From Bacillota bacterium (GTDB taxonomy: Bacteria > Bacillota_I > Bacilli_A > RF39 > UBA660), in the NCBI GenBank assembly GCA_023460995.1, contig JAEWOE010000006.1:774927-838926 (forward strand): DNA of 64,000 bases, given 5' to 3'. The notes beneath the pieces were generated by a model. It was not told the origin of the DNA. It searched no databases and saw nothing but the letters and a program-made list of their open reading frames with translations. Position 1 is the first letter of the stretch. Every line of letters starts with the position of its first letter. This document shows, piece after piece, positions 2,127 through 64,000 of this stretch. The position numbers were made by a program, and so were the translations under genes.

Positions 2127-4784
2127 ATGAAAGAAAGAGGTTTTACACTTATCGAGTTATTAGCAGTTATATTAATATTAGGAATAATAGCATTAATCGC
2201 CATTCCAGCAGTTACAAAAATGGTTGAAGAGTCGAGAATAAAGGCATTTAAGGAAACAAATCAAAATATTGCGTCAGTGGTTGAAGGAGAATGTTCTACA
2301 GCACAGTTAAAAGGTACGGGAACAACAGCGGGATATACTTTTAATGAAGAAGGTGCATCCGGTGACATAGGTGTTAAAGGTAAACTTCCAACTGGTGGTT
2401 CTGTATCCACGGATAATTCATGCAATTCAACTGTATACACTAATAATGACAAATATTGTGCTATAAAAACAGCTAATGATAACGAAATAACAGTCGGAAA
2501 ATATACTGATGGGAAGTGCAATATTACTATGAAAGATGACAGCTATTGTACGAGTGACTCTAATCCTGGTATTTTAAGTGGAACAGGCACAGAAATAGAT
2601 CCATATTCAATAGAAAGTATTGAAGATTTAGTTTCTCTTGTTGGATTAGTTGATAATGATGCTGCAAAGTTCGCTAACAAGTATGTTAAATTAAATAGTA
2701 ATTTAGATTTTAAAAATACTTGTTCGTATGTTGATACTAATTCGAAAGAATATGGAGATGTTAATAGTGATGGAGAAATATCAGGATTAATGGAAGAACT
2801 AACAACAGATTCAGGATTCATGCCTATAGGTCACAAAATGGAATATATGGGTAAAAGTTATTCTGAATATAGAGGTAATTTTGATGGTGGAAATCACTAT
2901 ATATCAAATTTGTATATAAATAGATCAGAAGAAAGTGTTATAGGATTATTTGGAAGTCTCTATTCATATGATTTTCCACAAGAATTTAAAAATATTAATA
3001 TTATAAACAGTGATGTTGTTGGAAAATCTTATACATCATTATTATTTGGCCAAGTTCAAGTTTATAATTCAATAATAATGAACAATATCCATACTATTGG
3101 TAATGTTACAGGCACATCTGATTCTGGCCTTGTTTCTGGTAGTGTATCATTATCCTATTTAGCTTCAGCAGAAGTCTCAAACATCACTTCTGCGGGATCG
3201 GTTAATGGTACAAATGGTTATATAGGTGGAACTTTTGGTGAAGTCAGTTATGGTAATTATAAAAATATTACTAATTACGCCCTAGTGCATGGAAATAATT
3301 ACTCTGGCGGAGTTTTTGGCAAGTTTGCTTTTGCTTCTTTAACCGGTGCGAAAAATTATGGAAAAGTAAATGATTTGCATGATTACAATCCTTCTCTAAC
3401 AAAATACTCTATTGGCGGTGTAATAGGATATTCATCTAGTGCTATTAGTGTTTCTGATGCATACAATTATGCAGATGTCATTGGGGTTTCAAATTTAGGT
3501 GGTATAATAGGAAATGCTCAAGATTACGAAACAACAAAATATAATAATTTATACAATTACGGAGACATTAGTTATCCAATTTATGGAGATTTTGACAATA
3601 TGAATTATATTAGTCAGCTTGGTGGTATTATTGGTAATGCCAACAATGGAACTATAACTAATACTTACAATTATGGCGATGTAACTGGATGGTCCAGGAC
3701 CGGCGGATTAGTAGGTAGTATAAGTAGTAGTGTATTATTAACTAATTTATCCAATTACGGAAAAGTAATTGGAGAACAATATATTGGAGGAATTGCTGGG
3801 GAGACTTATAATAAAACGGTCTCAAATTTATCTAATTACGGTGATGTTGTAGGAAAGAAGTTTGTAGGTGGAATAATTGGTAGTGGTTCACCATCAACTT
3901 TTGATAATTTAGTTAATCGTGGTGATGTAAAAAGTAGTAATTTTGGGCAGGATGATTCTAGTCAACTTGATATTGGGGGAATAATAGGTCAAACAAGTAG
4001 TAGTGTTCTTGTTAACGGAAATAATGCCTATAATTATGGAGATGTGTATGGTTATTATGATACTGGAGGCATAATTGGTTTTGCAGGTAAAGTAACAGGT
4101 ACGAACTTTGCAAATTACGGCAAAGTATATGGCCAATATCAAACCGGGGGATTAATTGGAGAGACTTCGACACTTAATCTAACTAACATTTTAAATCAAG
4201 GAGACTTAGAAATAACATCTTTTGAAAGTAGTTCATATAATCCATTAGGTGGCGGTATGGTTGGCAGTGGTTACAGTGTAATTTTAACAAACGGTTATTC
4301 AATCGGAAATATTGACGTTGAAAGTAATAATGGTTATTGGGCTAGAGTAGGCGGAGCCTTAGGAGAGGTAACTACGGCTCAACTCAATAACATCCATGTT
4401 GAAAGCGATATATCGGTTAATAATAATTCATCAGAGCAAAGTGGTTATATAGGTGGAGTTATTGCTAATAGTAATTCAACAAGTGCACTTACCAATATCT
4501 ATTATAAAGGAAAAATAACAACGAACCTTTCTGCACCATATGCAGGAACGATAGTGGCTGATTCAAATGCGACACAAACTAATGTATTTTACAATAATGC
4601 AAACCAAGCAAGTTTTAATGTCATAACTGGAACAGCAATAAGTAATAGTACAATTAATTCTAATTGGTTTAAAGATACATTATCTTTAGGCAGTGCATTT
4701 GATTATAGTAATGGAATATATCCAAGATTATATTCATTTGGCACTACTACTTTAATACCAAATCAAAAAGAGATTGATTTATAA
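2127..4784 (+). CDS. Type IV prepilin-like N-terminus fused to a GLUG-repeat (beta-helix-like) adhesin body, 885 aa
   Basis: N-terminus MKERGFTLIELLAVILILGIIALIAIPAV carries the class III signal and methylation motif. A conserved ~120-aa pilin head with Cys pairs follows. Roughly 25 GGIxG/NYGxV repeats follow that. The C-terminal tail NWFKDTLSLGSAFDYSNGIYPRLYSFGTTTLIPNQKEIDL is shared. Confidence 0.8.
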   Translation: MKERGFTLIELLAVILILGIIALIAIPAVTKMVEESRIKAFKETNQNIASVVEGECSTAQLKGTGTTAGYTFNEEGASGDIGVKGKLPTGGSVSTDNSCNSTVYTNNDKYCAIKTANDNEITVGKYTDGKCNITMKDDSYCTSDSNPGILSGTGTEIDPYSIESIEDLVSLVGLVDNDAAKFANKYVKLNSNLDFKNTCSYVDTNSKEYGDVNSDGEISGLMEELTTDSGFMPIGHKMEYMGKSYSEYRGNFDGGNHYISNLYINRSEESVIGLFGSLYSYDFPQEFKNINIINSDVVGKSYTSLLFGQVQVYNSIIMNNIHTIGNVTGTSDSGLVSGSVSLSYLASAEVSNITSAGSVNGTNGYIGGTFGEVSYGNYKNITNYALVHGNNYSGGVFGKFAFASLTGAKNYGKVNDLHDYNPSLTKYSIGGVIGYSSSAISVSDAYNYADVIGVSNLGGIIGNAQDYETTKYNNLYNYGDISYPIYGDFDNMNYISQLGGIIGNANNGTITNTYNYGDVTGWSRTGGLVGSISSSVLLTNLSNYGKVIGEQYIGGIAGETYNKTVSNLSNYGDVVGKKFVGGIIGSGSPSTFDNLVNRGDVKSSNFGQDDSSQLDIGGIIGQTSSSVLVNGNNAYNYGDVYGYYDTGGIIGFAGKVTGTNFANYGKVYGQYQTGGLIGETSTLNLTNILNQGDLEITSFESSSYNPLGGGMVGSGYSVILTNGYSIGNIDVESNNGYWARVGGALGEVTTAQLNNIHVESDISVNNNSSEQSGYIGGVIANSNSTSALTNIYYKGKITTNLSAPYAGTIVADSNATQTNVFYNNANQASFNVITGTAISNSTINSNWFKDTLSLGSAFDYSNGIYPRLYSFGTTTLIPNQKEIDL

Positions 4785-9752: not shown

Positions 9753-10241
9753 ATGCAACTAAAATCGATATCGCTTAATAAGTTTTTAAAATTATATCTA
9801 GGAATTGAAAACGAAGTATTAAAAAAGATGACACACAACGATGTGAAAATTTTATTGCCAGATCTATGTAGATGCTCATTTGAGTATGCTTATGAGAACT
9901 GTGAAATGATCCTAAAAGGTGATATTATTATTGTTTTTGATGCTAAAGGAATGATTGTTCCATATTTAAAACCAGATAAAAAAATGCAATATAATGTTGG
10001 ACTAATTTATGCTAATGAGACAAAAAGAGTTGGTAAAATAACCACCGACAAAGAGAATATAAAACTAAAGGAAATGTCTAATTATGAACTCAAATTATTA
10101 TTAAATGTTTCTAAAAATGGTTACGCTATTTCTAATAGTGCTAGAAAAGAACTTGAAGAAAGAGGTAAAATTAATTCAAAACAAAAAGTTAAAAAAAGAA
10201 TATGTAATAATTATTATTTAAGAAATTGTGAGGAGGAATAA
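9753..10241 (+). CDS. Hypothetical 162-aa protein encoded between the T-box leader and thrS
   Basis: Strong AGGAGG RBS; its stop overlaps the thrS RBS (GAGGAGG); no recognisable TGS fold. Confidence 0.5.
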   Translation: MQLKSISLNKFLKLYLGIENEVLKKMTHNDVKILLPDLCRCSFEYAYENCEMILKGDIIIVFDAKGMIVPYLKPDKKMQYNVGLIYANETKRVGKITTDKENIKLKEMSNYELKLLLNVSKNGYAISNSARKELEERGKINSKQKVKKRICNNYYLRNCEEE

Positions 10242-10243
10242 AA

Positions 10244-18878: not shown

Positions 18879-19991
18879 ATGAAAAAAGAGGGATTTACAT
18901 TAATTGAACTATTAGCTGTTATTTTAATTCTAGGTATAATTGCTTTAATTGCTATACCAACTGTAAATAAAATTATAGAACAAAGTAGAAAAGGAGCCTT
19001 TGAAACAACAGCTAATAATGTAGTAAGTGCAATAGAAGATGCTTGTCAGCTTCAAACACTAAAAGGTGAGACATTAACAACAACTTATACATTTAGTGAT
19101 GGTGATGTGTCACCAAGCTTAAATATCAAAGGATCATTACCAGAAGAAGGAACAGCAACAGTAGACTCTAGTTGTAATGTGACTTTAAATGTAACAAACG
19201 GAACATTTACAGCTACCAAAATATCTACAGAAGATACGGTAACGGTAGTAGAAGGTGGAGAAGTACCAGAAACACCGACAACATATACAGTATATGCTAA
19301 TGGTACAGCAGTATATTTCAATCCTGTAACTGGAGCAAAATGTACAGCAGGTTAAGCAGTAAGCACAACAGGAACTAAAACAGGATGTATGAAATGGTAT
19401 ACATTTAATGATGGTGGAGAATCTACTGATACCATTAACTTGATATTAGACCACAATACAACAGTGTTAGTAGCATGGAATTCTACTGGAAGTAATGTAA
19501 GTGGCCCAACAAACGTAATGACACAGCTTCAAACTGATACTAGTGCTTGGGCAGGAGTACCAACAAGAACAGATAGTTATAGTGTAAGTAATGGAACTGC
19601 TACTTATACAATAAATTATAGTACATATAAGGCTAGACTAATAAAGGCAGCTGAAATAGCTACAATAACAGGAAATAGTAGTTTTGTAGAGGCAACAATG
19701 CCAAATACAAGTTGGTTTTATTTAGACAGTAATAATCAAACACAAACAGCAACTACTACTGGAGCAAGTAATTATGACTGGTTATTTGATTATACAAACG
19801 GATGTACTGGTTACGGATGTAATGTAGCTGATGCAAGTAACTATGGGTACTGGACATCTACAGCTGTCTCTGGCAATACTGGCAGCGCTTGGCGCGTGTA
19901 TAGGCGCGGCTGCTTGGACAACTACAGCGTAGACAATTCGGGCGGCTACGGTGTGCGCCCAGTTATAACTATCTTAAAATCTAATCTCTAA
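18879..19991 (+). pseudogene. Modular pilin-lectin (paralogue of 15818..16927) interrupted by an in-frame TAA at 19353..19355
   Basis: GGT TAA here where the paralogues read GGA GAA or GGT GAA (Glu); the rest of the frame, including the DUF1566-like domain, is intact. Confidence 0.7.
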
Positions 19992-22656: not shown

Positions 22657-22756
22657 AATTTTTATGTTGCAAATAACGACAAAATTTAGTATTATTATCC
22701 TAGAAAGAACTAATACAGAATAATAAATAAACTTGCTAAATAATATGGAGGTTAAA
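22657..22756 (+). promoter_or_regulatory. Conserved promoter plus 5'UTR cassette, copy 3
   Basis: See 15728..15817. Confidence 0.6.
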
Positions 22757-23854
22757 ATGAAGAAAAAGGGGTTTACCCTAATTGAACTATTAGCAGTAAT
22801 TTTAATATTAGGCATAATTGCTCTAATTGCGATACCGGTAGTAAATAAAATAGTTAAGGAAAGTAAAAGGTCGTCATTTGAAACAAGTGCAAGAAATATA
22901 ATATCCGTTGCCGAGGATGAGTGTCAGATACAGTCATTAAAAGGTGAGACAGTTAATAACACTTATTCAATTAATAATGGGGAAATATTCCCATCATTAG
23001 ATATTAAGGGAAAGTTACCAACTAGTGGTTTAATTACATTAGATTCTGAATGTAAAGCTTCATTAGGAATGACAAATAGTACATTTACTGCTACTATGCC
23101 TAGTAACTCTAGGGAATTAACTATCATAGATGGAACTTATGATGTATATTCAAATGGAACAGCTGTATATTTTAATCCTGTATCAGGAAATACTTGTTCA
23201 TCAGGTGAAGCAGTAAGTACTCCAGGTACATACTCTGGATGCATGAAATGGTATGCTTTTGGCGATAGTAAAATTAGTGATACGGTTAATTTAATACTGG
23301 ATCACAATACAACAACTGGAGCTGTGTCTCCATGGAATTCAAGTGGTAGTAATTTGATTGGTCCAAAAGAAATATTAGTAAAACTTAAAGAAACTACAGC
23401 AAGTTGGACGGGAGTTCCATTAAGATATGATAGTTATACAGCAAAGTATATACCAACAAATTATAAAATAGATTATAGTACATATAGAGCAAGACTAATA
23501 ACCGCTACTGAAATAGCTAGAATAATAGGGAATAATACATTTGTAGATTCAGCTTTACCACATGCTTCTTGGTTTTATTTTGATAGTAATAATCAAATAC
23601 AAACAGTTTCATCCCAAGGTGGGAGTGCTTATAAATGGTTATTTGATTATTTAAGTGGTTGCACAAGCTACGGTTGTAATATCGCAAACGCAAGCTGTAA
23701 TGGTTACTGGACAGCTTCAGCAACAGGAAGTGAAGATTATTATAAATGGGGTGCTTGGTATGTTAATGGACAAGGTACTTTAAATTATGGTAATGTTGTT
23801 ATTCCTGTTATGGGAGTTAGACCAGTCATCACAATTTTAAAATCTGAACTATAG
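22757..23854 (+). CDS. Modular pilin-lectin paralogue (prepilin N-terminus plus DUF1566-like C-terminus), more diverged and AT-rich throughout
   Basis: MKKKGFTLIELLAVILILGIIALIAIP; C-terminal ARLITATEIARI...YWTASATG...GVRPVITIL. Confidence 0.75.
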   Translation: MKKKGFTLIELLAVILILGIIALIAIPVVNKIVKESKRSSFETSARNIISVAEDECQIQSLKGETVNNTYSINNGEIFPSLDIKGKLPTSGLITLDSECKASLGMTNSTFTATMPSNSRELTIIDGTYDVYSNGTAVYFNPVSGNTCSSGEAVSTPGTYSGCMKWYAFGDSKISDTVNLILDHNTTTGAVSPWNSSGSNLIGPKEILVKLKETTASWTGVPLRYDSYTAKYIPTNYKIDYSTYRARLITATEIARIIGNNTFVDSALPHASWFYFDSNNQIQTVSSQGGSAYKWLFDYLSGCTSYGCNIANASCNGYWTASATGSEDYYKWGAWYVNGQGTLNYGNVVIPVMGVRPVITILKSEL

Positions 23855-46468: not shown

Positions 46469-46614
46469 TTTTAATTATCTTTTTTTAATTTTTAAATATA
46501 TATTTTTAAATAAAATAAATAATTTTACATATAATGAGCACAATAAAATTGAAATTATACGTTTACATCAATAAATTTTTATAATAAAATTTACCAATGG
46601 ATAGGATGGCAAAT

Positions 46615-49488
46615 ATGAGAAAGAAGTATTTTAAGGGGTTTACATTAATAGAACTTTTAGCAGTTATTTTAATACTTGGAATAATTGCTTTAATTGCGGT
46701 ACCAGTAATTTCAAGAATGATTAAGGAAAGTAAAAGAGGTGCTTTTGAAACATCCGTAAATAATATAGTGGATGTATTAGAAAATACTTGTAATATACAA
46801 ACAATGAATAACGAAGCAGTAACTTCAAAGTATATTTTTGCCAATGGTGAAATATCACCAACAATAGATATAAAAGGTAGTTTACCAAAAGATGGTACAG
46901 CTACTGTTGATTTAAACTGTAAAGTTGCTGCAAATTTAACTAATGGAAATTTCACAGCAATAAAAACTATAGCAGATGATAGCATAGCTGTGGTAGATGG
47001 AAATACATTAGAGCAACCTGTTGTATTATTTGATACAAACGGTAATTCAAAGTATTCTAAATCAGCTAATATAAAGATCACTGTAAGTGATGAGAGTGGT
47101 CTTGATGAAAGTAGTTTAAAATATTTGTGGAATATAACAACTAATATACCAGACGAAGCAAGTATTACTAATACATTTACAAATAATGATATTATAAGTT
47201 CACCAAGTGATGCAAATGGTGAATACTATTTATGGATATTAGCTAAAGATACTAGTGGTAATACAGCAATAACAAGAACAAGTGTATTTTATTTAGATAA
47301 TACAAGTCCCGTTATAAATTTAAATGGCAGTAATCCTGCTACTATTAATTTAGATGATACTTATATTGATGAAGGTGCTTCGGCAACTGACAACATTGAT
47401 GAAAGTATATCTATAGTAACAACAGGTACAGTTAATCCTAGTACTGTTGGAACATATAATATGACTTATAGTGCTACTGATACGGCTGGAAATACAGCAA
47501 GTGTTACACGTCAAATAAATGTTATTGATACTATTAAACCAACTATAGTATTTGGAACAAATGGTAATAACACATATGCTAAAATGAGAAATACGACAGT
47601 AACAGTTAGTGATAATGGAGTAATAGATACCAGTAGTTTAAAATACTTATGGAATACAAGTACAAGTAATCCAGATGAAGTTTCATTTAACACAACATTT
47701 ACTAATGGAAATACAATAACTACTCCAAATAGTTTGACAGGTGGTTATTATTTATGGATATTAGCTAAAGATAGTAGTGGTAATGTATCTATATCAAGAA
47801 CTGATGTTTTTAATTTAGATAATCAAATTCCAGTAATAACATTAAATGGCAGTAGTTCTGTATCAGTGAATGTAGGAGCTTCTTATACAGATGCAGGAGC
47901 AACTGCTACTGACAATATAGATGGAAGCATTCCTGTAACAACTACAGGCACTGTAAATCCTAATAGTGTTGGAACATATACAATTACTTATAATGCTACA
48001 GACACTGCTGGTAATAATGCAGTTTCAGTAACAAGAACAATTAATGTTATAGATGTTAGTGCACCAGTTATTACGATGTTAGGAAGTAATCCAGTAAGCA
48101 TTAATATTGGTAGTAGTTATACAGATGCAGGAGCTACAGCACTAGATGATGTTGATGGTAATGTAACTAGTAAAATAACAACAACAAGTACAATAAATGT
48201 TAATGCTTTAGGAAGTTATACTCTAACATATAGAGTGACAGATGTAGCAGGAAATACAGCTACAGCAATTAGAACTGTTAATGTTATAGATACTGTTTTA
48301 CCAAATGTAACATTTGGAACAAATGGTAACAGTACATATGCAAAAACAAGAAGTTCTGTTGTTACTTTAAGTGACAACGTTGCTATAAATGGAAGTAGTT
48401 TAAAATATCTATGGAGTACTAGTACAAGTACACCAAGTGAAGCATCATTTACTACTTCATTTACTAATGGCGGAACTATTAATAGTCCAGCAGGAGCAAC
48501 TGGTATTTATTACTTATGGATATTAGGAAAAGATACTAGTGGAAATACAAGAATTACAGGAAGCAATGCTTTCTATTTAGACAATACTGTTCCAGTATAT
48601 AGTAGTTATGCGATTACAAATGTAACTAGTAGTGGATATGATGTATATATATATGGAGTAAGCGATGCTCATATAGGAATAAATAAAGTACAATTTCCAA
48701 CATGGACTGACTATAATGGTGGAGATGATATGCAACCAAGCTGGGAAACTAATGCAGCGGCTAGTGGAACAAATCTTGGAAGTGGAACTTGGTATTATAG
48801 AGTAAATGTTAGTGCTCACAATAATGAATCAGGAGTATATAATACCCATGTATACATTTACGATAGTGCCGGTAATTCAACAGCTTTTGCAGCTTCACAA
48901 ACAACAGTACCACCAAGTGTATACTATTTAGTTGATGTGGTTAATGTTGGAGATTTTATAAGTTATACAGGAAATAATGGCTGTACAAATTGTGGTGGTC
49001 AAAGTGTAAGTTGTTATGGCGGTTATGCTAATACTTATAGTGGCTGGAGAGTTATTTCAAAAAGCGGAAGTGGTTCAACAGGTACAGTTTCAATAGTAGC
49101 CGCAGGAACTACAGAATGTATTGGTTCAGATGGTGGAACTAATGGAGCAGTATTTAATGCTTTAGCAGGTAAGTATTTAAATACAACTTATGCGGCAAGT
49201 GCTAGAAGTATTAATTGTAATGATGCTTTACCATACTCAGCAGCAGCATGTACAAACTATACAACTTATGTAGCTGATTCAATGATACAGCCAGGTGGAT
49301 TTTACTATTTTGCAACACCATACTCAGGAAGCACATGGGTATACTGGGCAATAGTAGAATCAGGTAGATTTAATACTAATGGTGGTTATACATTTGGTTT
49401 AAGACCTATAATTAACTTTAAATCAGGTGTAACAAAAACAGGAGGTAGTGGGACTAACGCAACACCATATACAATATCTATACAGTAG
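46615..49488 (+). CDS. Giant modular pilin: prepilin N-terminus plus alternating conserved-module/DUF5011 Ig-like repeats plus Cys-rich C-terminal domain (963 aa)
   Basis: KGFTLIELLAVILILGIIALIAVP; DUF5011 units (LNGS.P..I..G..Y.D.GATA.DN.DG.I...TTGTVN...VGTY..TY.ATD.AGN); three copies of a second ~95-aa module (FGTNGN.TYAK...SLKYLWN.ST..P.E..F...FTN...YYLWILAKD.SGN). Confidence 0.8.
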   Translation: MRKKYFKGFTLIELLAVILILGIIALIAVPVISRMIKESKRGAFETSVNNIVDVLENTCNIQTMNNEAVTSKYIFANGEISPTIDIKGSLPKDGTATVDLNCKVAANLTNGNFTAIKTIADDSIAVVDGNTLEQPVVLFDTNGNSKYSKSANIKITVSDESGLDESSLKYLWNITTNIPDEASITNTFTNNDIISSPSDANGEYYLWILAKDTSGNTAITRTSVFYLDNTSPVINLNGSNPATINLDDTYIDEGASATDNIDESISIVTTGTVNPSTVGTYNMTYSATDTAGNTASVTRQINVIDTIKPTIVFGTNGNNTYAKMRNTTVTVSDNGVIDTSSLKYLWNTSTSNPDEVSFNTTFTNGNTITTPNSLTGGYYLWILAKDSSGNVSISRTDVFNLDNQIPVITLNGSSSVSVNVGASYTDAGATATDNIDGSIPVTTTGTVNPNSVGTYTITYNATDTAGNNAVSVTRTINVIDVSAPVITMLGSNPVSINIGSSYTDAGATALDDVDGNVTSKITTTSTINVNALGSYTLTYRVTDVAGNTATAIRTVNVIDTVLPNVTFGTNGNSTYAKTRSSVVTLSDNVAINGSSLKYLWSTSTSTPSEASFTTSFTNGGTINSPAGATGIYYLWILGKDTSGNTRITGSNAFYLDNTVPVYSSYAITNVTSSGYDVYIYGVSDAHIGINKVQFPTWTDYNGGDDMQPSWETNAAASGTNLGSGTWYYRVNVSAHNNESGVYNTHVYIYDSAGNSTAFAASQTTVPPSVYYLVDVVNVGDFISYTGNNGCTNCGGQSVSCYGGYANTYSGWRVISKSGSGSTGTVSIVAAGTTECIGSDGGTNGAVFNALAGKYLNTTYAASARSINCNDALPYSAAACTNYTTYVADSMIQPGGFYYFATPYSGSTWVYWAIVESGRFNTNGGYTFGLRPIINFKSGVTKTGGSGTNATPYTISIQ

Positions 49489-55595: not shown

Positions 55596-55862
55596 ATGAA
55601 TATAGTGAAAATAGGGGCGATGTGGTGCCCAGGGTGTCTAGTTATGCATAAAGTATGGACACAAATAGAAAAAGAATATCCAGAATTAGAAATAACAACA
55701 TATGATTTGGATATGGATAGTGAAGAAGTAGAAAAATATGATGTTGGAACTACACTTCCTGTAATAATTTTTTATAAAGAAAATGTTGAATATAAAAGAT
55801 TAATTGGAGAAAAAAAATATGAAGATATAAATAAAATTATTTTAGAAATGAGGAATAATTAA
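55596..55862 (+). CDS. Small thioredoxin-like protein (CPGC active site)
   Basis: GAMWCPGCLVM. Confidence 0.7.
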   Translation: MNIVKIGAMWCPGCLVMHKVWTQIEKEYPELEITTYDLDMDSEEVEKYDVGTTLPVIIFYKENVEYKRLIGEKKYEDINKIILEMRNN

Positions 55863-57082
55863 TGAAAAAGTTTCTTAAAGCATTATTTCTATCTTTTATA
55901 TTATTTATATTTCCAACATTAGTTAACGCTTCTACTTTTGATTATAAGGATCAGGTTTATGATATAGTTGAAGAAAAAGAAAGTACTAAAGTAACTGTTT
56001 ATCTTTTTCATAGTAGTTCTTGTGTACATTGCAAAGCTGAAAATGCTTTCCTAAATGAACTTGCGAGTGAGTATGGAGATAAAATTGATATAAAAAGATA
56101 TGAAGTTACTTCTAGTGCAATAAATAGTAACTATATGCAGTTAGTAAAAGATAGATTTGGTTCAACGTCAACAGGCGTACCTTTTACTGTAATTGGTCAA
56201 AAATATTATGTTGGATATAGTGAAAGCATTGGTAAAACAATGAAAAATACTATTGATTCATATATTAAAAGTATGAATAATGGTGCTTCTGATGATGATT
56301 CGGATGATAATGAAGAAGAAGTAATAGAAGAAGATAATAAAATTAATTTACCACTACTAGGTGATGTAGATGCTAAACAAGTATCACTTCCACTTGTTGC
56401 AGTGATATTAGGAACCATTGATGGTTTTAATCCATGTGCCATGTGGATTTTGCTATTCTTGATAAACATGTTATTTAATATGAAAGATCGTAAAAAAATG
56501 TGGATACTTGGTTTTACTTTCTTATTTACTTCAGCATTTGTTTATTTTTTAGCAATGCTAGGACTTTCAGTAGTAATAGGTATGACAGCCGTAGTTTGGG
56601 TGAGAACATTAATTGCTTTTGTAGCAATTTTAGGTGGTATTGTTAACTTAAATAGTTATTTGAAAACACCTAAAGATGGATGTCATGTTGTAGATGAAAA
56701 AAAACGCAAAAAGTATTTTACAAAAATAAAGAAGTTTACTTTAGAACAAAACATGTTATTATCATTAATTGGTGTTATAACATTAGCGGCTAGTGTTAAC
56801 TTAGTAGAACTTGCTTGTTCAGCAGGCTTTCCTACTATATTTATTTCTATGTTAGATTTAAATGGTATAAATGGTTTTGCTAGTATTCTTTACATATTAC
56901 TTTATATAGTATTCTTCCTGATAGACGACATAGTGATATTTATAATAGCTATGACAACATTTAAAATTAGTGGTATTACTACTAAGTATAATAGATTATC
57001 ACATTTAATAGGTGGTATTATTATGATTATAATAGGATTACTACTTGTACTTAAACCAGAATGGATTATGCTTAACTTTTAA
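55862..57082 (+). CDS. Fusion of extracytoplasmic thioredoxin-like domain (CVHC) and CcdA/DsbD-like transmembrane electron transfer domain
   Basis: Signal/TM plus SSSCVHCKAE; membrane domain with NPCAMW and ELACSAGFP conserved Cys motifs. Confidence 0.65.
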   Translation: MKKFLKALFLSFILFIFPTLVNASTFDYKDQVYDIVEEKESTKVTVYLFHSSSCVHCKAENAFLNELASEYGDKIDIKRYEVTSSAINSNYMQLVKDRFGSTSTGVPFTVIGQKYYVGYSESIGKTMKNTIDSYIKSMNNGASDDDSDDNEEEVIEEDNKINLPLLGDVDAKQVSLPLVAVILGTIDGFNPCAMWILLFLINMLFNMKDRKKMWILGFTFLFTSAFVYFLAMLGLSVVIGMTAVVWVRTLIAFVAILGGIVNLNSYLKTPKDGCHVVDEKKRKKYFTKIKKFTLEQNMLLSLIGVITLAASVNLVELACSAGFPTIFISMLDLNGINGFASILYILLYIVFFLIDDIVIFIIAMTTFKISGITTKYNRLSHLIGGIIMIIIGLLLVLKPEWIMLNF

Positions 57083-57131: not shown

Positions 57132-58337
57132 ATGAAAAAAATATTTAAAAGTTATAGGTTTCCAATTATACTATTAATATCTATGATATTAGGTAGTATT
57201 GTAGGAATATTTTTTCCAAATTCTGCCACTTATTTAAAACCATTTGGTGATATATTCTTAAATATGATGTTTACCATTGTGGTTCCACTTGTATTTTTTA
57301 CTATAGTTAGTAGTATAAGTAATATGAGTAGTATTAAAAAACTTAGTAAGATATTAAAAATTACTTTTCTTGTATTTATAATAACTGGTATAATTTCAAC
57401 ATTAGTAATGTTGGCAACTATGTTGTTTATAGATCCAGTAGGTAATACATATATAGATTTAGTAGCAAGTGAAGTAGAAAGTATTAGTGTTTTAGATCAA
57501 ATAGTTGCGGCTATTACTGTTACTGATTTTACTAGTTTACTTTCAAGAAGTCATATGCTTGCGTTAATTATATTCTCGGTAATATTTGGTATATCTCTTT
57601 GCTTAATAGAGAGAAAAGAAAAAAAAGTTGGGCATATTTTTGAAGTAATATCAAATGCATTAATGAAATTTGTTAAAATAATTATGTATTATGCACCAGT
57701 AGGTATATTTGCTTATTTTGCAGCTTTAGTAGCTGAATTTGGTCCGGAACTTATTGGTAGTTATGCAAGAAGCATGGTTTTATATTATATTCTAACAGTT
57801 TTTTATTTCTTAATATTCTATACTGTATATGCTTATTTTAGTAAAGGAAAAGCAGGTGTAAGAAACTTTTACAAACATATCTTTCCTTCAGTAATAACTA
57901 GTTTAGCAACGCAATCATCACTTGCTACTTTACCAACTAATTTAGATACAGCTAATAATATGAAGATAGATGAAGATGTAAGTAAAGTTGCTCTTCCAAT
58001 AGGTGCGACAGTGCACATGGAAGGGTCTTGTATGGGATCTATTCTTAAAATTGTTTTCTTATTTAGTATATTTAACTATGATTTTGTAGGAGTAGATACT
58101 TATTTAATTGCTATTTTAATCTCAGTATTAAGTGGTATAGTTATGTCAGGAATTCCTGGTGGTGGTTTAATAGGTGAAATGCTTATAGTATCACTTTATG
58201 GATTCCCACCAGAAGCCTTTGCTATAATTGCTACAATAGGATGGTTAATTGATCCACCAGCAACATTACTTAATGTTACAGGGGATATATCATCTTCTAT
58301 GATAATAGATAAATACGTAAATCCAAAAGAAGCTTAG
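57132..58337 (+). CDS. Dicarboxylate/amino acid:cation symporter (DAACS) family transporter
   Basis: Multi-TM; conserved PIGATVHMEGS and NVTGD-like motifs. Confidence 0.6.
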   Translation: MKKIFKSYRFPIILLISMILGSIVGIFFPNSATYLKPFGDIFLNMMFTIVVPLVFFTIVSSISNMSSIKKLSKILKITFLVFIITGIISTLVMLATMLFIDPVGNTYIDLVASEVESISVLDQIVAAITVTDFTSLLSRSHMLALIIFSVIFGISLCLIERKEKKVGHIFEVISNALMKFVKIIMYYAPVGIFAYFAALVAEFGPELIGSYARSMVLYYILTVFYFLIFYTVYAYFSKGKAGVRNFYKHIFPSVITSLATQSSLATLPTNLDTANNMKIDEDVSKVALPIGATVHMEGSCMGSILKIVFLFSIFNYDFVGVDTYLIAILISVLSGIVMSGIPGGGLIGEMLIVSLYGFPPEAFAIIATIGWLIDPPATLLNVTGDISSSMIIDKYVNPKEA

Positions 58338-58398
58338 GCTTCTTTTATTTTTAGTTTGAAAATAATATTTTTATGTTATAATTATTCTAGGTGATAGT

Positions 58399-58794
58399 AT
58401 GAAAAGTAAAGGGTTCACGTTAGTCGAAATTTTAGCAGTAATTACAATTATTGGTATACTTGCTTTAATAGCGGTTCCAACAGTAGATTCAATTATAAAA
58501 AGAGGTAAAGAAGACGCATATAATGTTCAGAAACAAGCAGTATTAGCAGGCTTAAAGAACTGGGCAGCTTCTAAAACTTTAACCCTTCCAACAGTAAACG
58601 GTGAAACCTTAACAGCAACTATAGGTGATTTAAAAGTAGCAGGTTTTTTAGAAGTGGAAACAAGAAATCCTATGAACGATTTATGTTTTAGTAATGACAC
58701 TGTCCTTGTAGTAACAAGAAAGAATAACAATTACACATACACATTCCAAGATGAAGACAATATTGATTTTACCGAAACTTGTGAGGTAGAATAA
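58399..58794 (+). CDS. Short (131 aa) type IV minor pilin/pseudopilin-like protein
   Basis: MKSKGFTLVEILAVITIIGILALIAVP; small globular head; ATGA overlap with the next pilin gene. Confidence 0.8.
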   Translation: MKSKGFTLVEILAVITIIGILALIAVPTVDSIIKRGKEDAYNVQKQAVLAGLKNWAASKTLTLPTVNGETLTATIGDLKVAGFLEVETRNPMNDLCFSNDTVLVVTRKNNNYTYTFQDEDNIDFTETCEVE

Positions 58795-61517
58795 TGAGAA
58801 AAGGTTTTACATTAGTCGAATTACTTGGTGTTGTAGTAATTATGGGTGTTATTGCGTTAATAGCTGTTCCCGCTGTTGATAGTGTAGTTAAAAAGAACAA
58901 AGAAAAAGCATATGATTTTACTAAAAGTACTATTATAGCAGCTTCTAAAAACTGGCTGTTAGATAATAAATCTTTACTTGATGATGGTGAAACAGTCAAT
59001 GTTACTCTTGCTGATTTAAAAGAACAAGGTTACTTGGATTTTGATATTAAAAATCCTTCAAGTGGCAAATGTTTAGATAATACAATGGAGGTCTCAATAA
59101 GTAGAAATGAGAAGAAATATTCATACGCTATTATTGGAAATGAACTTGTAGATGGTAGTGATTCTGATTGCGAGACTACAGGTAGGGCGCCTTCAATCTA
59201 TCTATTAGGTTCAAATCCTCTTAATGTTGAAATAAATACACCTTTTGTTGATCCAGGCGCAAAGGCTACAGATACAGATGGTATAGATATCACAAATAAA
59301 ATTGTTAAACCAGATGTAATTGATACAAGTACACTTGCTAGTAATATAAAATATAAGTATACAATTTTATCTGATGGTATTATAAAAACTGTAACTAGAA
59401 AAGTAAATGTAATTGATACTACAAAACCAGTAATTATTGGAGTCGCTGATACATCATTAAATACAAGTGATACTACTTTTAATATTATGGATGGTGTAAG
59501 TGCTTCAGATAATAGCGGTGAGACAATTACTATAAAGACAAAATCGAATTTAATGTTAGGGGTTAAGGGAGAATATACGGTTACTTACATAGCAACTGAT
59601 TCTTCAGGTAATACCACAAGTAAAACTAGAAAAATAAAGGTTGAAAAACCAGCTTATACTCTCATGGTTAGGTCACCAGGTAACTATCTATGGAATAGTA
59701 CATACCAAAACAAAATTGAATCAATTGATTTTGTTGATTATGTGGATACAACAGGATCTACTATTTCATGGGATTTATCTGCAGCGAAAAACGGAACAAT
59801 AACAGGATGGCTTATTCCAGATACGAATAATCCATCATATTATAAAATGTACATAGGTAGTACTGGATATATATATGCTAATCCCGATTCATCTCATTGG
59901 TTTCAAGGGTTTGAAACTCTTTATTCAATAAATTTAGATAATTTTAATACATCAAATGTGACAAACATGAGTTATATGTTTTACGCTATGGAAGTTGTAA
60001 CTAGTCTAGATTTAAGCGACTTTGTCACATCAAATGTAACAAATATGGAATGTATGTTTGCTGATACTTTTGGTTTAGAAAATTTGGATTTGAGTAGTTT
60101 TGATACATCAAAGGTAACAAGTATGAGCTTTATGTTTTGGAATGATAATTTCTACGGGTCAGTGAGTAATCTAATTAGTTTAGATTTGAGAAGCTTTGAC
60201 ACATCAAATGTGACATCAGCGTTTAGAATGTTTTCTGGTTTAACTAAATTGACTAGTTTAGATTTGAGTAGTTTTGATACATCAAAAATAACTAACATGG
60301 GTTCTATGTTTTCCTCTATGACAAGTCTAAAGTATTTAAATGTGAGTAATTTTGACACATCAAATGTCAATCATATGAGTGGTATGTTTTCTGGTGCAAG
60401 TGGTCTAACTAGTTTGAATTTAAGCAATTTTAACACATCAAATGTAACAGACATGAGTGGTATGTTTTCTGGTGCAAGTGGTCTAACTAGTTTGAATTTA
60501 AGCAATTTTGATACATCAAAAGTAACTAGTATGTATGGTATGTTTTCTGGTGCAAGTAGTCTAACTAGTTTAAATATAAGCAGTTTTGATACATCAAAAG
60601 TAACTAGTATGGGGGAGATGTTTAGTTCTGCAAGCAGTCTAACTAATTTGAACTTAAGCAATTTTGATACATCAAGCGTAACTAGTATGAGTGGTATGTT
60701 TCGTTCTGCAAGTAAGCTAACAAGTTTAGATTTAAGTAGTTTTGATACATCAAACGTATCTAGTATGAGTGGTATGTTTAGTGATGCAAGTAGTTTAATA
60801 AGCTTAGATTTAAGTAGTTTTGACACATCAAAAGTTACCAGTATGTCTTTTATGTTTAGTTATGCAAACAAATTAGTAAACCTAAATGTAAGTAATTTTA
60901 ATACTTCAAATGTAGTAGATATGCGAGGCATGTTTCGTCATACATCAAGTTTAGTTGATTTAAATGTAAGTAACTTTAATACATCAAAAGTAAACGATAT
61001 GAGTGAAATGTTTTATTATTCTAGCAGTATAACTAGTCTAAACTTAAGCAACTTTAATACATCAAGCGTAACTAGTATGAGTAGTATGTTTAGCTCTGCA
61101 AGCAATTTAACAAGTTTAGATTTAAGTAGTTTTAATACATCTAATGTTACTTATATGTATGAAATGTTCAGTTTTACAACTAAATTAACAAGTTTAAACT
61201 TAAGTAGTTTTAACACTTCAAATGTTACCAGCATGAGATCAATGTTTTCTAGAACAAATAGTTTAGTAAGTTTAAATATAGTTAATTTTGATACATCAAA
61301 AGTAACTGATATGAGTAACATGTTTAGTTATTCAACTAGTTTAACTAATCTTGATTTAAGTAATTTTAATACAACAAAAGTAACAAATATGAATTATATG
61401 TTCAATTATTCTAATAATTTAACTACTATTTATGTAGGAAGCAATTGGACAACTACTGGTGCGACAACTGTTAACATGTTCTATGGTTGTGGCACATCAA
61501 CTGTAACACCAAAATAA
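58794..61517 (+). CDS. Giant modular pilin: prepilin N-terminus plus pilin head plus two DUF5011 Ig-like domains plus ~20 DUF285/BspA-type leucine-rich repeats (907 aa)
   Basis: MRKGFTLVELLGVVVIMGVIALIAVP; ~26-aa repeats (L.LS.FDTSNVT.M..MF...S.L.SLDLS) from ~59930 to ~61430. Confidence 0.8.
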   Translation: MRKGFTLVELLGVVVIMGVIALIAVPAVDSVVKKNKEKAYDFTKSTIIAASKNWLLDNKSLLDDGETVNVTLADLKEQGYLDFDIKNPSSGKCLDNTMEVSISRNEKKYSYAIIGNELVDGSDSDCETTGRAPSIYLLGSNPLNVEINTPFVDPGAKATDTDGIDITNKIVKPDVIDTSTLASNIKYKYTILSDGIIKTVTRKVNVIDTTKPVIIGVADTSLNTSDTTFNIMDGVSASDNSGETITIKTKSNLMLGVKGEYTVTYIATDSSGNTTSKTRKIKVEKPAYTLMVRSPGNYLWNSTYQNKIESIDFVDYVDTTGSTISWDLSAAKNGTITGWLIPDTNNPSYYKMYIGSTGYIYANPDSSHWFQGFETLYSINLDNFNTSNVTNMSYMFYAMEVVTSLDLSDFVTSNVTNMECMFADTFGLENLDLSSFDTSKVTSMSFMFWNDNFYGSVSNLISLDLRSFDTSNVTSAFRMFSGLTKLTSLDLSSFDTSKITNMGSMFSSMTSLKYLNVSNFDTSNVNHMSGMFSGASGLTSLNLSNFNTSNVTDMSGMFSGASGLTSLNLSNFDTSKVTSMYGMFSGASSLTSLNISSFDTSKVTSMGEMFSSASSLTNLNLSNFDTSSVTSMSGMFRSASKLTSLDLSSFDTSNVSSMSGMFSDASSLISLDLSSFDTSKVTSMSFMFSYANKLVNLNVSNFNTSNVVDMRGMFRHTSSLVDLNVSNFNTSKVNDMSEMFYYSSSITSLNLSNFNTSSVTSMSSMFSSASNLTSLDLSSFNTSNVTYMYEMFSFTTKLTSLNLSSFNTSNVTSMRSMFSRTNSLVSLNIVNFDTSKVTDMSNMFSYSTSLTNLDLSNFNTTKVTNMNYMFNYSNNLTTIYVGSNWTTTGATTVNMFYGCGTSTVTPK
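59930..61430 (+). repeat. Intragenic 78-bp tandem repeat array (DUF285 LRR units), including a perfect 57-bp duplication at 60375..60431 and 60453..60509
   Basis: Direct reading of repeated atgagtggtatgttttctggtgcaagtggtctaactagtttgaatttaagcaatttt. Confidence 0.85.
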
Positions 61518-63624: not shown

Positions 63625-64000
63625 ATGAAGAATAATAAGGGTTTTACATTAATTGAACTTATGGGTATTTTAGTAGTAATGGCAGTGATTTTTGGTATTG
63701 CCTATCCTGTTTATACTGAAATAACTAAACAAAATAAAGATGATTTATTTAGAGATAATTTAAGAAATGCAATATCTATTATTAGAACTATAAATGTAGT
63801 TGAATTTCAGGAGACAAATGGTTGTTTAAAAAACATTGAAACTAAAGGTACTAAACTTACTGGAAGCTGGGAACTTTCTGAAGATACTATCATTATTCAT
63901 AATGTTAGCGATGGTATTAGATCAATAATAAATTTATCAGAAGATAAATTAAATAAAAATTTTAATGTAGAAAGACAGGCACTGGCAGAGACTTGTAGTT
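63625..64000 (+). CDS. Another prepilin-type protein, 3'-truncated by the window end
   Basis: MKNNKGFTLIELMGILVVMAVIFGIAYP; AGGTGG RBS; frame open to the window end. Confidence 0.7.
   Translation, partial: MKNNKGFTLIELMGILVVMAVIFGIAYPVYTEITKQNKDDLFRDNLRNAISIIRTINVVEFQETNGCLKNIETKGTKLTGSWELSEDTIIIHNVSDGIRSIINLSEDKLNKNFNVERQALAETCS

Follow-up and report, generated by a model that had tools for sequence, protein, structure and literature searches.

The stretch of DNA analysed here (64,000 nucleotides of contig JAEWOE010000006.1, assembly GCA_023460995.1, positions 774,927 to 838,926, from an RF39 member of the Bacillota; hereafter the window) contains a pair of overlapping genes that code for a small protein of 131 residues and a very large one of 907 residues, both of which start in the way type IV pilins do. 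We take it as probable that the pair is a two-gene operon for proteins of the type IV pilin family in an uncultured, spore-forming, low-GC member of the gut Bacilli, and that the larger product is a modular pilin which would be assembled into a filament and there expose a long array of PARCEL (DUF285) repeats acting as an adhesin. The window falls within a metagenome contig of 959 kb (ENA ERZ27268749, k141_100495). Its GC content is about 27%, nearly all of its genes lie on one strand, and sporulation genes are present. Its relatives are uncultured gut metagenome-assembled genomes (MAGs) labelled Bacilli, Bacillota, Tenericutes or Mycoplasmatota, recovered from roe deer, sheep, rabbit, chicken and human hosts.

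A first reading of the letters, made without database searches (the sequence-only reading), had proposed that both genes code for pilins, and family models bear it out. Each protein opens with a class III signal, MKSKG/FTLVEILAVITIIGILALIAVP in the small one and MRKG/FTLVELLGVVVIMGVIALIAVP in the large one (the slash marks the expected cut), with KG/FTLVE in common: a basic leader ending in glycine, phenylalanine at +1, glutamate at +5, and then a hydrophobic stretch. The N_methyl family (PF07963, cut-off 21.2 bits) scores 30.9 bits on the small protein and 22.9 bits on the large one, while TIGR02532 (cut-off 16.3 bits) gives 31.3 and 22.5 bits. G-1, F+1, E+5 and a pair of cysteines are invariant in the family, the motif residues being constant in 11 and 14 homologues, and the invariant columns in the pilin module of the large protein are G4, F5, T6, L7, E9, C93 and C126. 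AlphaFold2 predicts a helix over residues 8-58 followed by strands forming a small beta head in the small pilin (predicted local distance difference test, pLDDT, 79), and a helix over residues 7-57, again followed by strands, in the N-terminal 300 residues of the large protein (pLDDT 63). When a profile of the pilin module was compared with the PDB, 21 chains were matched, all of them type IV pilins or pseudopilins, and PilA5 of Thermus was aligned over positions 6-114. The two proteins are related within their pilin parts: the smaller is a paralogue of the module of the larger, being 39% identical to residues 1-127 (E 2e-33). The name of minor pilin that it had been given is unproven, neither a major pilin nor an assembly machinery having been identified.

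What makes the large protein unusual is that which follows its pilin module. Next come two immunoglobulin (Ig)-like domains of family PF16403, which we take to be DUF5011 (and IPR032179 in InterPro), as the sequence-only reading had anticipated at least for the presence of DUF5011. They are probably a stalk: the second is modelled with pLDDT above 80, and Foldseek finds the region to resemble stalk domains of SraP, Rib and a chitinase, with E-values from 1e-8 to 1e-5. The remainder of the protein is chiefly an array of tandem 26-residue units, on which DUF285 (PF03382), the Pfam hidden Markov model (HMM) to which the first reading had pointed, scores 468 bits for a cut-off of 25, and TIGR02167, the PARCEL model, 518 bits over 19 stretches for a cut-off of 30. 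The array is therefore one of tandem units of the 25-26-residue type that match the family models, and the whole protein, with its pilin module, its two PF16403 domains and then DUF285, is a modular pilin in the sense of PMC8179133. The units had also been described as leucine-rich repeats (LRR) of the BspA type; here the DUF285 half of the description stands and the BspA half does not, as a Pfam scan of the large protein returns no match to PF13306 (BspA-type LRR_5). The wording is to be traced to the NCBI product name 'BspA family LRR surface protein', which is given to DUF285 proteins. At the C-terminus we found neither LPXTG nor any other anchor.

The two genes are tightly joined. The last base of the TAA stop codon of the small pilin gene is the first base of the ATG of the large one, making TAATG, with a GAGG motif 7 nt upstream of that ATG. 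Probable co-translation had been proposed from this junction, and the overlap is not only real but kept in four other genomes or strains, with 1 nt in L002, 1 nt in L087, 4 nt in L083 and 11 nt in L003, as compared with 1 nt in the window; this conservation supports coupled expression of both genes. The gene upstream of the pair belongs to the SDF family (Pfam scan). A promoter scan at the small pilin gene lists a weaker site, overlapping the putative promoter given in Table 1, which does not rise above the background of shuffled sequences. Directly 3' of the large gene, in the window as in L002, L003 and L087, lies a gene for a membrane-anchored protein of 189 residues, without family match in Pfam and NCBIfam scans, which may belong to the same transcription unit.

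Table 1. Features of the pilin gene pair and of other pilin-type genes (positions are those of the window; aa, amino acid residues)
Feature	Position	Strand	Remarks
Terminator-like hairpin and T-run	58325..58346	+	9-pair stem; ends the upstream SDF-symporter gene; 5' boundary of the pilin transcription unit
Putative extended -10 promoter, TGtTATAAT	58374-58382	+	Candidate read from the sequence
Putative Shine-Dalgarno motif of the small pilin gene, AGGTGA	58389-58394	+	Candidate read from the sequence
Small pilin gene, 131 aa	58399..58794	+	Leader MKSKG, F+1, E+5, long alpha-1 helix, four-stranded head, Cys96/Cys128
Coupling junction	58783..58796	+	GAGG 58783-58786 (within the small pilin gene), TAA 58792-58794, ATG 58794-58796
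Large pilin gene, 907 aa	58794..61517	+	Pilin module, two DUF5011 Ig-like domains, DUF285/PARCEL array
Pilin module, aa 1-132	58794..59189	+	Leader MRKG, F+1, E+5, alpha-1 helix, beta head, Cys93/Cys126
Two Ig-like domains (PF16403/DUF5011), aa 135-206 and about 210-285	59196..59648	+	64.5 bits, 2 stretches
Linker or N-terminal cap region, aa 286-371	59649..59906	+	Between Ig-like domains and array; no family match
PARCEL/DUF285 array	59907..61466	+	20 units by register, 19 by HMM; 78 bp (26 aa) each
57-nt identical core, copy 1 (unit 7)	60375..60431	+	
57-nt identical core, copy 2 (unit 8)	60453..60509	+	
C-terminal tail, …NMFYGCGTSTVTPK, and stop codon	61467..61517	+	Tail kept in the closest orthologues
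Minus-strand open reading frames	60152-60370, 60371-60826; also 61151-61321	-	Non-coding frame artefacts
Membrane-anchored protein, 189 aa	61589..62158	+	Directly 3' of the large pilin gene in the window, L002, L003 and L087
Further pilin-type genes (GFTLIE signal)	2127-4784, 15794-16927, 18855-19355, 22733-23854, 46597-49488, 63626-64000		
3' part of a 775-aa pilin gene	4-2028		Gene starts upstream of the window
963-aa pilin	46597-49488		One of the six further genes above; three DUF5011 Ig-like domains, GBS_Bsp-like repeat

The array itself is regular. Tandem Repeats Finder gives a period of 78 with 14.6 copies over 60255-61392 (74% matches), together with 8.6 copies over 60165-60835 (79% matches), and a separate repeat search follows the 78-bp spacing through 14 successive steps; since the register gives 20 units, the initial estimate of some 20 units with a 78-bp period can be retained. 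The phase of the array shifts in one unit, at 60141, and the last unit is a degenerate cap. Units 7 and 8 share an exact run of 57 nt, without extension on either side, the two copies starting 78 nt apart with 21 nt between them. The next longest exact runs in register are of 28 nt at an offset of one unit and 26 nt at other offsets. As the central in-phase units are on average only 70% identical, a 57-nt run is far beyond chance (0.7^57, about 1e-9 per position). Units 7, 8 and 9 (starting at 60375, 60453 and 60531) are the most alike in the array, with 71-72 of 78 nt in common, the other units being 64-83% identical; units 7 and 8 differ at seven positions, every one of them in the final 21 nt (simulation gives a P of about 7e-4), and over 60506-60533 unit 8 is identical to unit 9 over 60584-60611 (28 nt). 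Unit 8 is thus chimeric, with 57 nt as in unit 7 and 28 nt as in unit 9, and units 7-9 make up a recent recombination mosaic. What had been presented as a perfect 57-bp tandem duplication is exact as an identity, yet it consists of the cores of neighbouring 78-bp units, one of them chimeric, a pattern that speaks less for a clean duplication than for recombination among the units, by gene conversion or unequal exchange.

Two further properties of the array deserve mention. A dyad of 7+7 nt (TTTTGAT-AC-ATCAAAA), within TTTRAYACWTCAAR, recurs in 16 units; its symmetry is weak, with one longer inverted pair only, and the idea that the array could be a long-range palindrome was dropped, a single inverted pair of at least 14 nt having been found. 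On the opposite strand, the open reading frames (ORFs) at 60152..60826 had been set aside from the start as artefacts of the repeat, and with reason. The antisense frame contains 14 stops across the window array, 17 in the array of L087 and 32 in that of L003, and it stays open to the same extent (128 codons) where the large gene has no repeats; being neither conserved nor peculiar to the repeats, these ORFs were rejected as real genes, and we attribute them to a general frame effect. Opposite-strand ORFs are a common property of PARCEL tracts (PMC2996958).

Comparison with relatives shows that the effector end of the large protein evolves fast, while its pilin end and the flanks of the locus stay fixed. 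A constant gene order is found, with thioredoxin, a thioredoxin-fold membrane protein, the SDF symporter, the small pilin and the large pilin, followed by a membrane protein of about 190 residues, MurD, a pilin of 125 residues and FtsK; it is complete in the window and in four other loci (L002, L003, L087 and L088), and the genes that precede the pilin pair have this order in L082, L083 and L085 as well. Among the best 120 matches to DUF285, 22 have pilin N-termini, and these carry 4-20 recognisable units; in the closest clade the counts are 4, 9, 9, 11, 12 and 12, as against 19 in the window protein. The length variation that the first reading had suggested is accordingly seen between lineages, with 4-20 units in orthologues; no sign of differing lengths within a population was seen in the assembled contigs, although the array may still be changing today.

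Replacement goes further than unit number. The large pilin of L087 (727 residues, 10001-12184) carries PARCEL units, and that of L002 (689 residues, 10390-12459) carries LRR_5, presumably IPR026906. The flanks of these two loci are 94.6% and 94.3% identical, and colinearity extends to codon 283 of the large gene, to resume 38 nt past its stop codon; between these breakpoints the segments are non-homologous, PARCEL in the one and BspA-type LRR_5 in the other (PF13306, 213 bits in L002). The breakpoint at residue 283 coincides with the start of the linker or cap region. In this pair of genomes, about 94.5% identical, a PARCEL module has therefore been exchanged for an LRR_5 module. When 1.84 billion representative proteins were searched with a profile and cluster representatives were then scanned with Pfam, the pilin plus Ig scaffold was seen joined elsewhere to DUF285, to LRR_5, to long DUF5011 arrays and to modules that are not recognised. 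Searched against plasmids with megablast, the gene pair had no match.

In the scenario that we find probable, both prepilins would insert into the membrane through their hydrophobic N-terminal helix, and a prepilin peptidase encoded elsewhere would cut after the glycine (MKSKG/F and MRKG/F), whereupon a type IV filament machinery would incorporate them through their pilin modules. The larger of the two would most likely sit at the tip, with its small paralogue as a partner or stabiliser, in the manner of PilA and PilC of Streptococcus sanguinis, where PilA binds and stabilises the modular pilin PilC (PMC9934059). The Ig-like stalk would keep the PARCEL array away from the filament on which it is presumably displayed, and the array would be the ligand-binding adhesin. 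This last role is suggested by analogy: the modular pilins PilB and PilC are adhesins (PMC8179133, PMC9934059), and in Lactococcus lactis a role in attachment to mucin and to abiotic surfaces has been ascribed to a DUF285 protein (PMC5501904).

Several observations weigh against this scenario. Neither the 64-kb window nor the 8 kb upstream of it nor 1.3 Mb of related pilin loci yielded a secretion ATPase, a platform protein or a prepilin peptidase (Pfam scans of 46 window ORFs, and scans of the window and the 1.3 Mb for the Walker A box of secretion ATPases and the A24 peptidase motif), so that the link with a filament is one of homology. None of the NCBIfam equivalogs for a named pilin (ComGC to ComGG, GspG/H, PilA) reaches its cut-off: the ComGC model gives 29.4 and 23.1 bits where 75 are needed, ComGD, ComGE and ComGF are likewise below theirs, and the match is confined to the common N-terminal helix. 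No PARCEL protein has a solved structure detectable by sequence, and no ligand is known for any array of this kind. Finally, the location at the tip and the partner role of the small pilin are drawn by analogy only.

We consider it rather unlikely that the pilin-type N-terminus would be a membrane anchor or export tag and nothing else, the proteins staying bound to the membrane or forming a short assembly which is not a pilus; the lineage would then use the pilin module as a general device for surface display. Class III signal peptides do serve sugar-binding proteins in archaea, and the abundance of pilin-type genes goes in this direction: there are eight in the window and a ninth which starts just upstream (nine in about 66 kb), several of them coding for giant proteins (775, 885 and 963 residues), and they are scattered among housekeeping genes without assembly genes nearby. 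In the related loci, 40 of 142 complete pilin-type ORFs exceed 300 residues and, as said above, 1.3 Mb showed no secretion ATPase. Pilin genes are, however, often sited away from their assembly machinery, and what has been kept is a whole pilin head and not the signal only, with an invariant pair of cysteines and full-length similarity to a filament-forming pilin. Similarly built modular pilins are, moreover, assembled into pili in S. sanguinis (PMC8179133). A broader and doubtful idea, which we put forward tentatively, is that the pilin module would be the general chassis of the adhesin repertoire of this lineage, with many giant pilin-fusion genes dispersed over the core chromosome, and that PARCEL, LRR_5, Ig arrays and unrecognised modules would be swapped onto it as cassettes, from one near-identical genome to another, at a fixed breakpoint, perhaps with no conventional long pilus at all.

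Other explanations concern the repeat rather than the pilin. Were the array a contingency locus, its identical core would drive frequent changes in unit number within a population, by slipped-strand events or unequal crossover, and the outcome would be rapid antigenic or length variation. The tandem in-frame units, the 57-nt identity, the chimeric unit and the widely different unit numbers of the orthologues would all agree with it. We nonetheless hold it to be quite improbable: a long identical tract is present in only one pair of units, the others having the 64-83% identity given above, the same 907-residue allele recurs in three long contigs, and identity with a fourth sample is 100% as far as the repeat; on/off switching is impossible in any case, as a 78-bp unit preserves the reading frame. 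It is more improbable still, to the point of being barely credible, that the 57-nt identity or the unit count near it is an artefact of assembly. Short-read assemblies do break within the large pilin gene, but 57 nt falls short of the 141-mer to which the contig name k141_100495 points, and on both sides of the identical core differences between the units appear within 21 nt. Three contigs of 0.2-1 Mb, each of at least 200 kb, encode the 907-residue protein in identical form (its exact sequence being absent from the protein cluster collection in spite of this). Furthermore, a Logan contig from another sample, SRR13243523, assembled with k=31 and 100% identical over 5,404 nt, enters the repeat by 30 nt and breaks off at 60404, where its last 31-mer is still anchored in unique sequence; it stops at the first 31-mer that is not unique, exactly as expected of a real repeat. 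Collapse of the assembly, which the first reading had named among the findings that would undo its claim, was rejected on the strength of the three long contigs and of this break point. The operon for a modular pilin remains the account that we find probable.

The neighbourhood offers further observations. In every syntenic locus, the gene for the thioredoxin-fold protein (55862-57082 in the window) is the second one ahead of the pilin pair. This protein has a CVHC motif and is fused to a multi-pass membrane domain, and an 88-residue thioredoxin is encoded just upstream of it; it might form the invariant disulfide of the pilins. Elsewhere in the window, a two-gene cassette is tandemly duplicated (14435-16927 and 17477-19991), pairing a membrane protein of 405 or 410 residues with a pilin whose C-terminal domain weakly resembles DUF6273. 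The pilin of the second copy is broken into ORFs of 166 and 200 residues, and is therefore probably a pseudogene. The gene for the pilin of 963 residues comes after those for a DUF6020 membrane protein and a family 2 glycosyltransferase. As for the sequence record, contigs of strains close to the window, L082, L083, L085 and L086, end inside the large gene, before or at the array; more generally, short-read assemblies of the same or near-identical strains (L082, L083, L085, L086 and L090) repeatedly end within giant pilin genes, so that MAG catalogues will contain too few of these genes or give them in truncated form.

Modular pilins are the current explanation for the functional range of simple type IV filaments, and few of them have been studied. 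The locus is in this respect a natural experiment, as the pilin module, the partner pilin and the flanks are constant while the binding module has been expanded, reshuffled or replaced. It is well suited to asking what PARCEL arrays bind, and it could throw light on the entry of very large subunits into a filament and on the way in which uncultured Bacilli of the gut tune their adhesion. Annotation is concerned as well, since the only name that such genes now receive, 'BspA family LRR surface protein', passes over their pilin part.

The closest counterparts are PilB and PilC of S. sanguinis, in which a class III signal and a small pilin module are likewise fused to a bulky module foreign to the pilus (von Willebrand factor A, vWA, in PilB, and a lectin in PilC), with a small pilin, PilA, encoded alongside, and for which, as here, a filament-borne adhesin is proposed. 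The window protein is different in that its effector is made of two Ig-like domains and a PARCEL array of 19-20 units, in place of vWA or lectin; it is roughly twice as large, its genes lie outside a pil operon, and it is known from sequence alone. The small partner, unlike PilA, is a paralogue of the pilin module of the large protein itself. The LRR adhesins of the Bacillota, of the internalin or BspA type, combine a repeat array with Ig-like spacers and a C-terminal LPXTG or GW anchor. A repeat array, Ig-like spacers and a surface anchor are found here too, InlK is among the Foldseek matches, and the orthologue at the same locus in L002 carries the BspA-type LRR_5 module itself; the anchor of the window protein is, in contrast, an N-terminal pilin module and not a C-terminal LPXTG or GW, and the order is reversed, anchor and stalk coming first and the array last.

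With the PARCEL proteins of Mollicutes and other microbes (PMC2996958) the large pilin shares a tandem repeat of 25-26 residues, variable in number, and targeting to the membrane; in its gene most units carry a short DNA dyad, and ORFs occur on the opposite strand. Those proteins are lipoproteins or carry other membrane signals, with no pilin mentioned (PMC2996958). In the window the symmetry of the dyad is weak, and no mobile element is adjacent. The nearest precedent in architecture is an InterPro survey of modular pilins made in 2021, which distinguished 264 architectures (PMC8179133). It lists some 22 proteins with IPR012902-IPR005046, that is, the pilin motif followed by DUF285 (for IPR005046, see PMC2996958), with one to nine DUF285 matches each (PMC8179133, Dataset S1), as well as 27 proteins with IPR012902-IPR026906 and 4 with IPR012902-IPR032179 (PMC8179133); the combination of IPR032179 with IPR005046 is not among the architectures listed (PMC8179133, Dataset S1). 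Beyond this table, our literature search found no paper linking pilins with DUF285. The proteins of Dataset S1 have the same combination of motifs, and neither their locus context nor any exchange of modules is described there. The pilin-DUF285 design was thus already known from the 2021 catalogue, of which the window gene is a further, uncharacterised example; what is new is the conserved paired locus, the documented replacement of its module, and the density of pilin-fusion genes in this genome.

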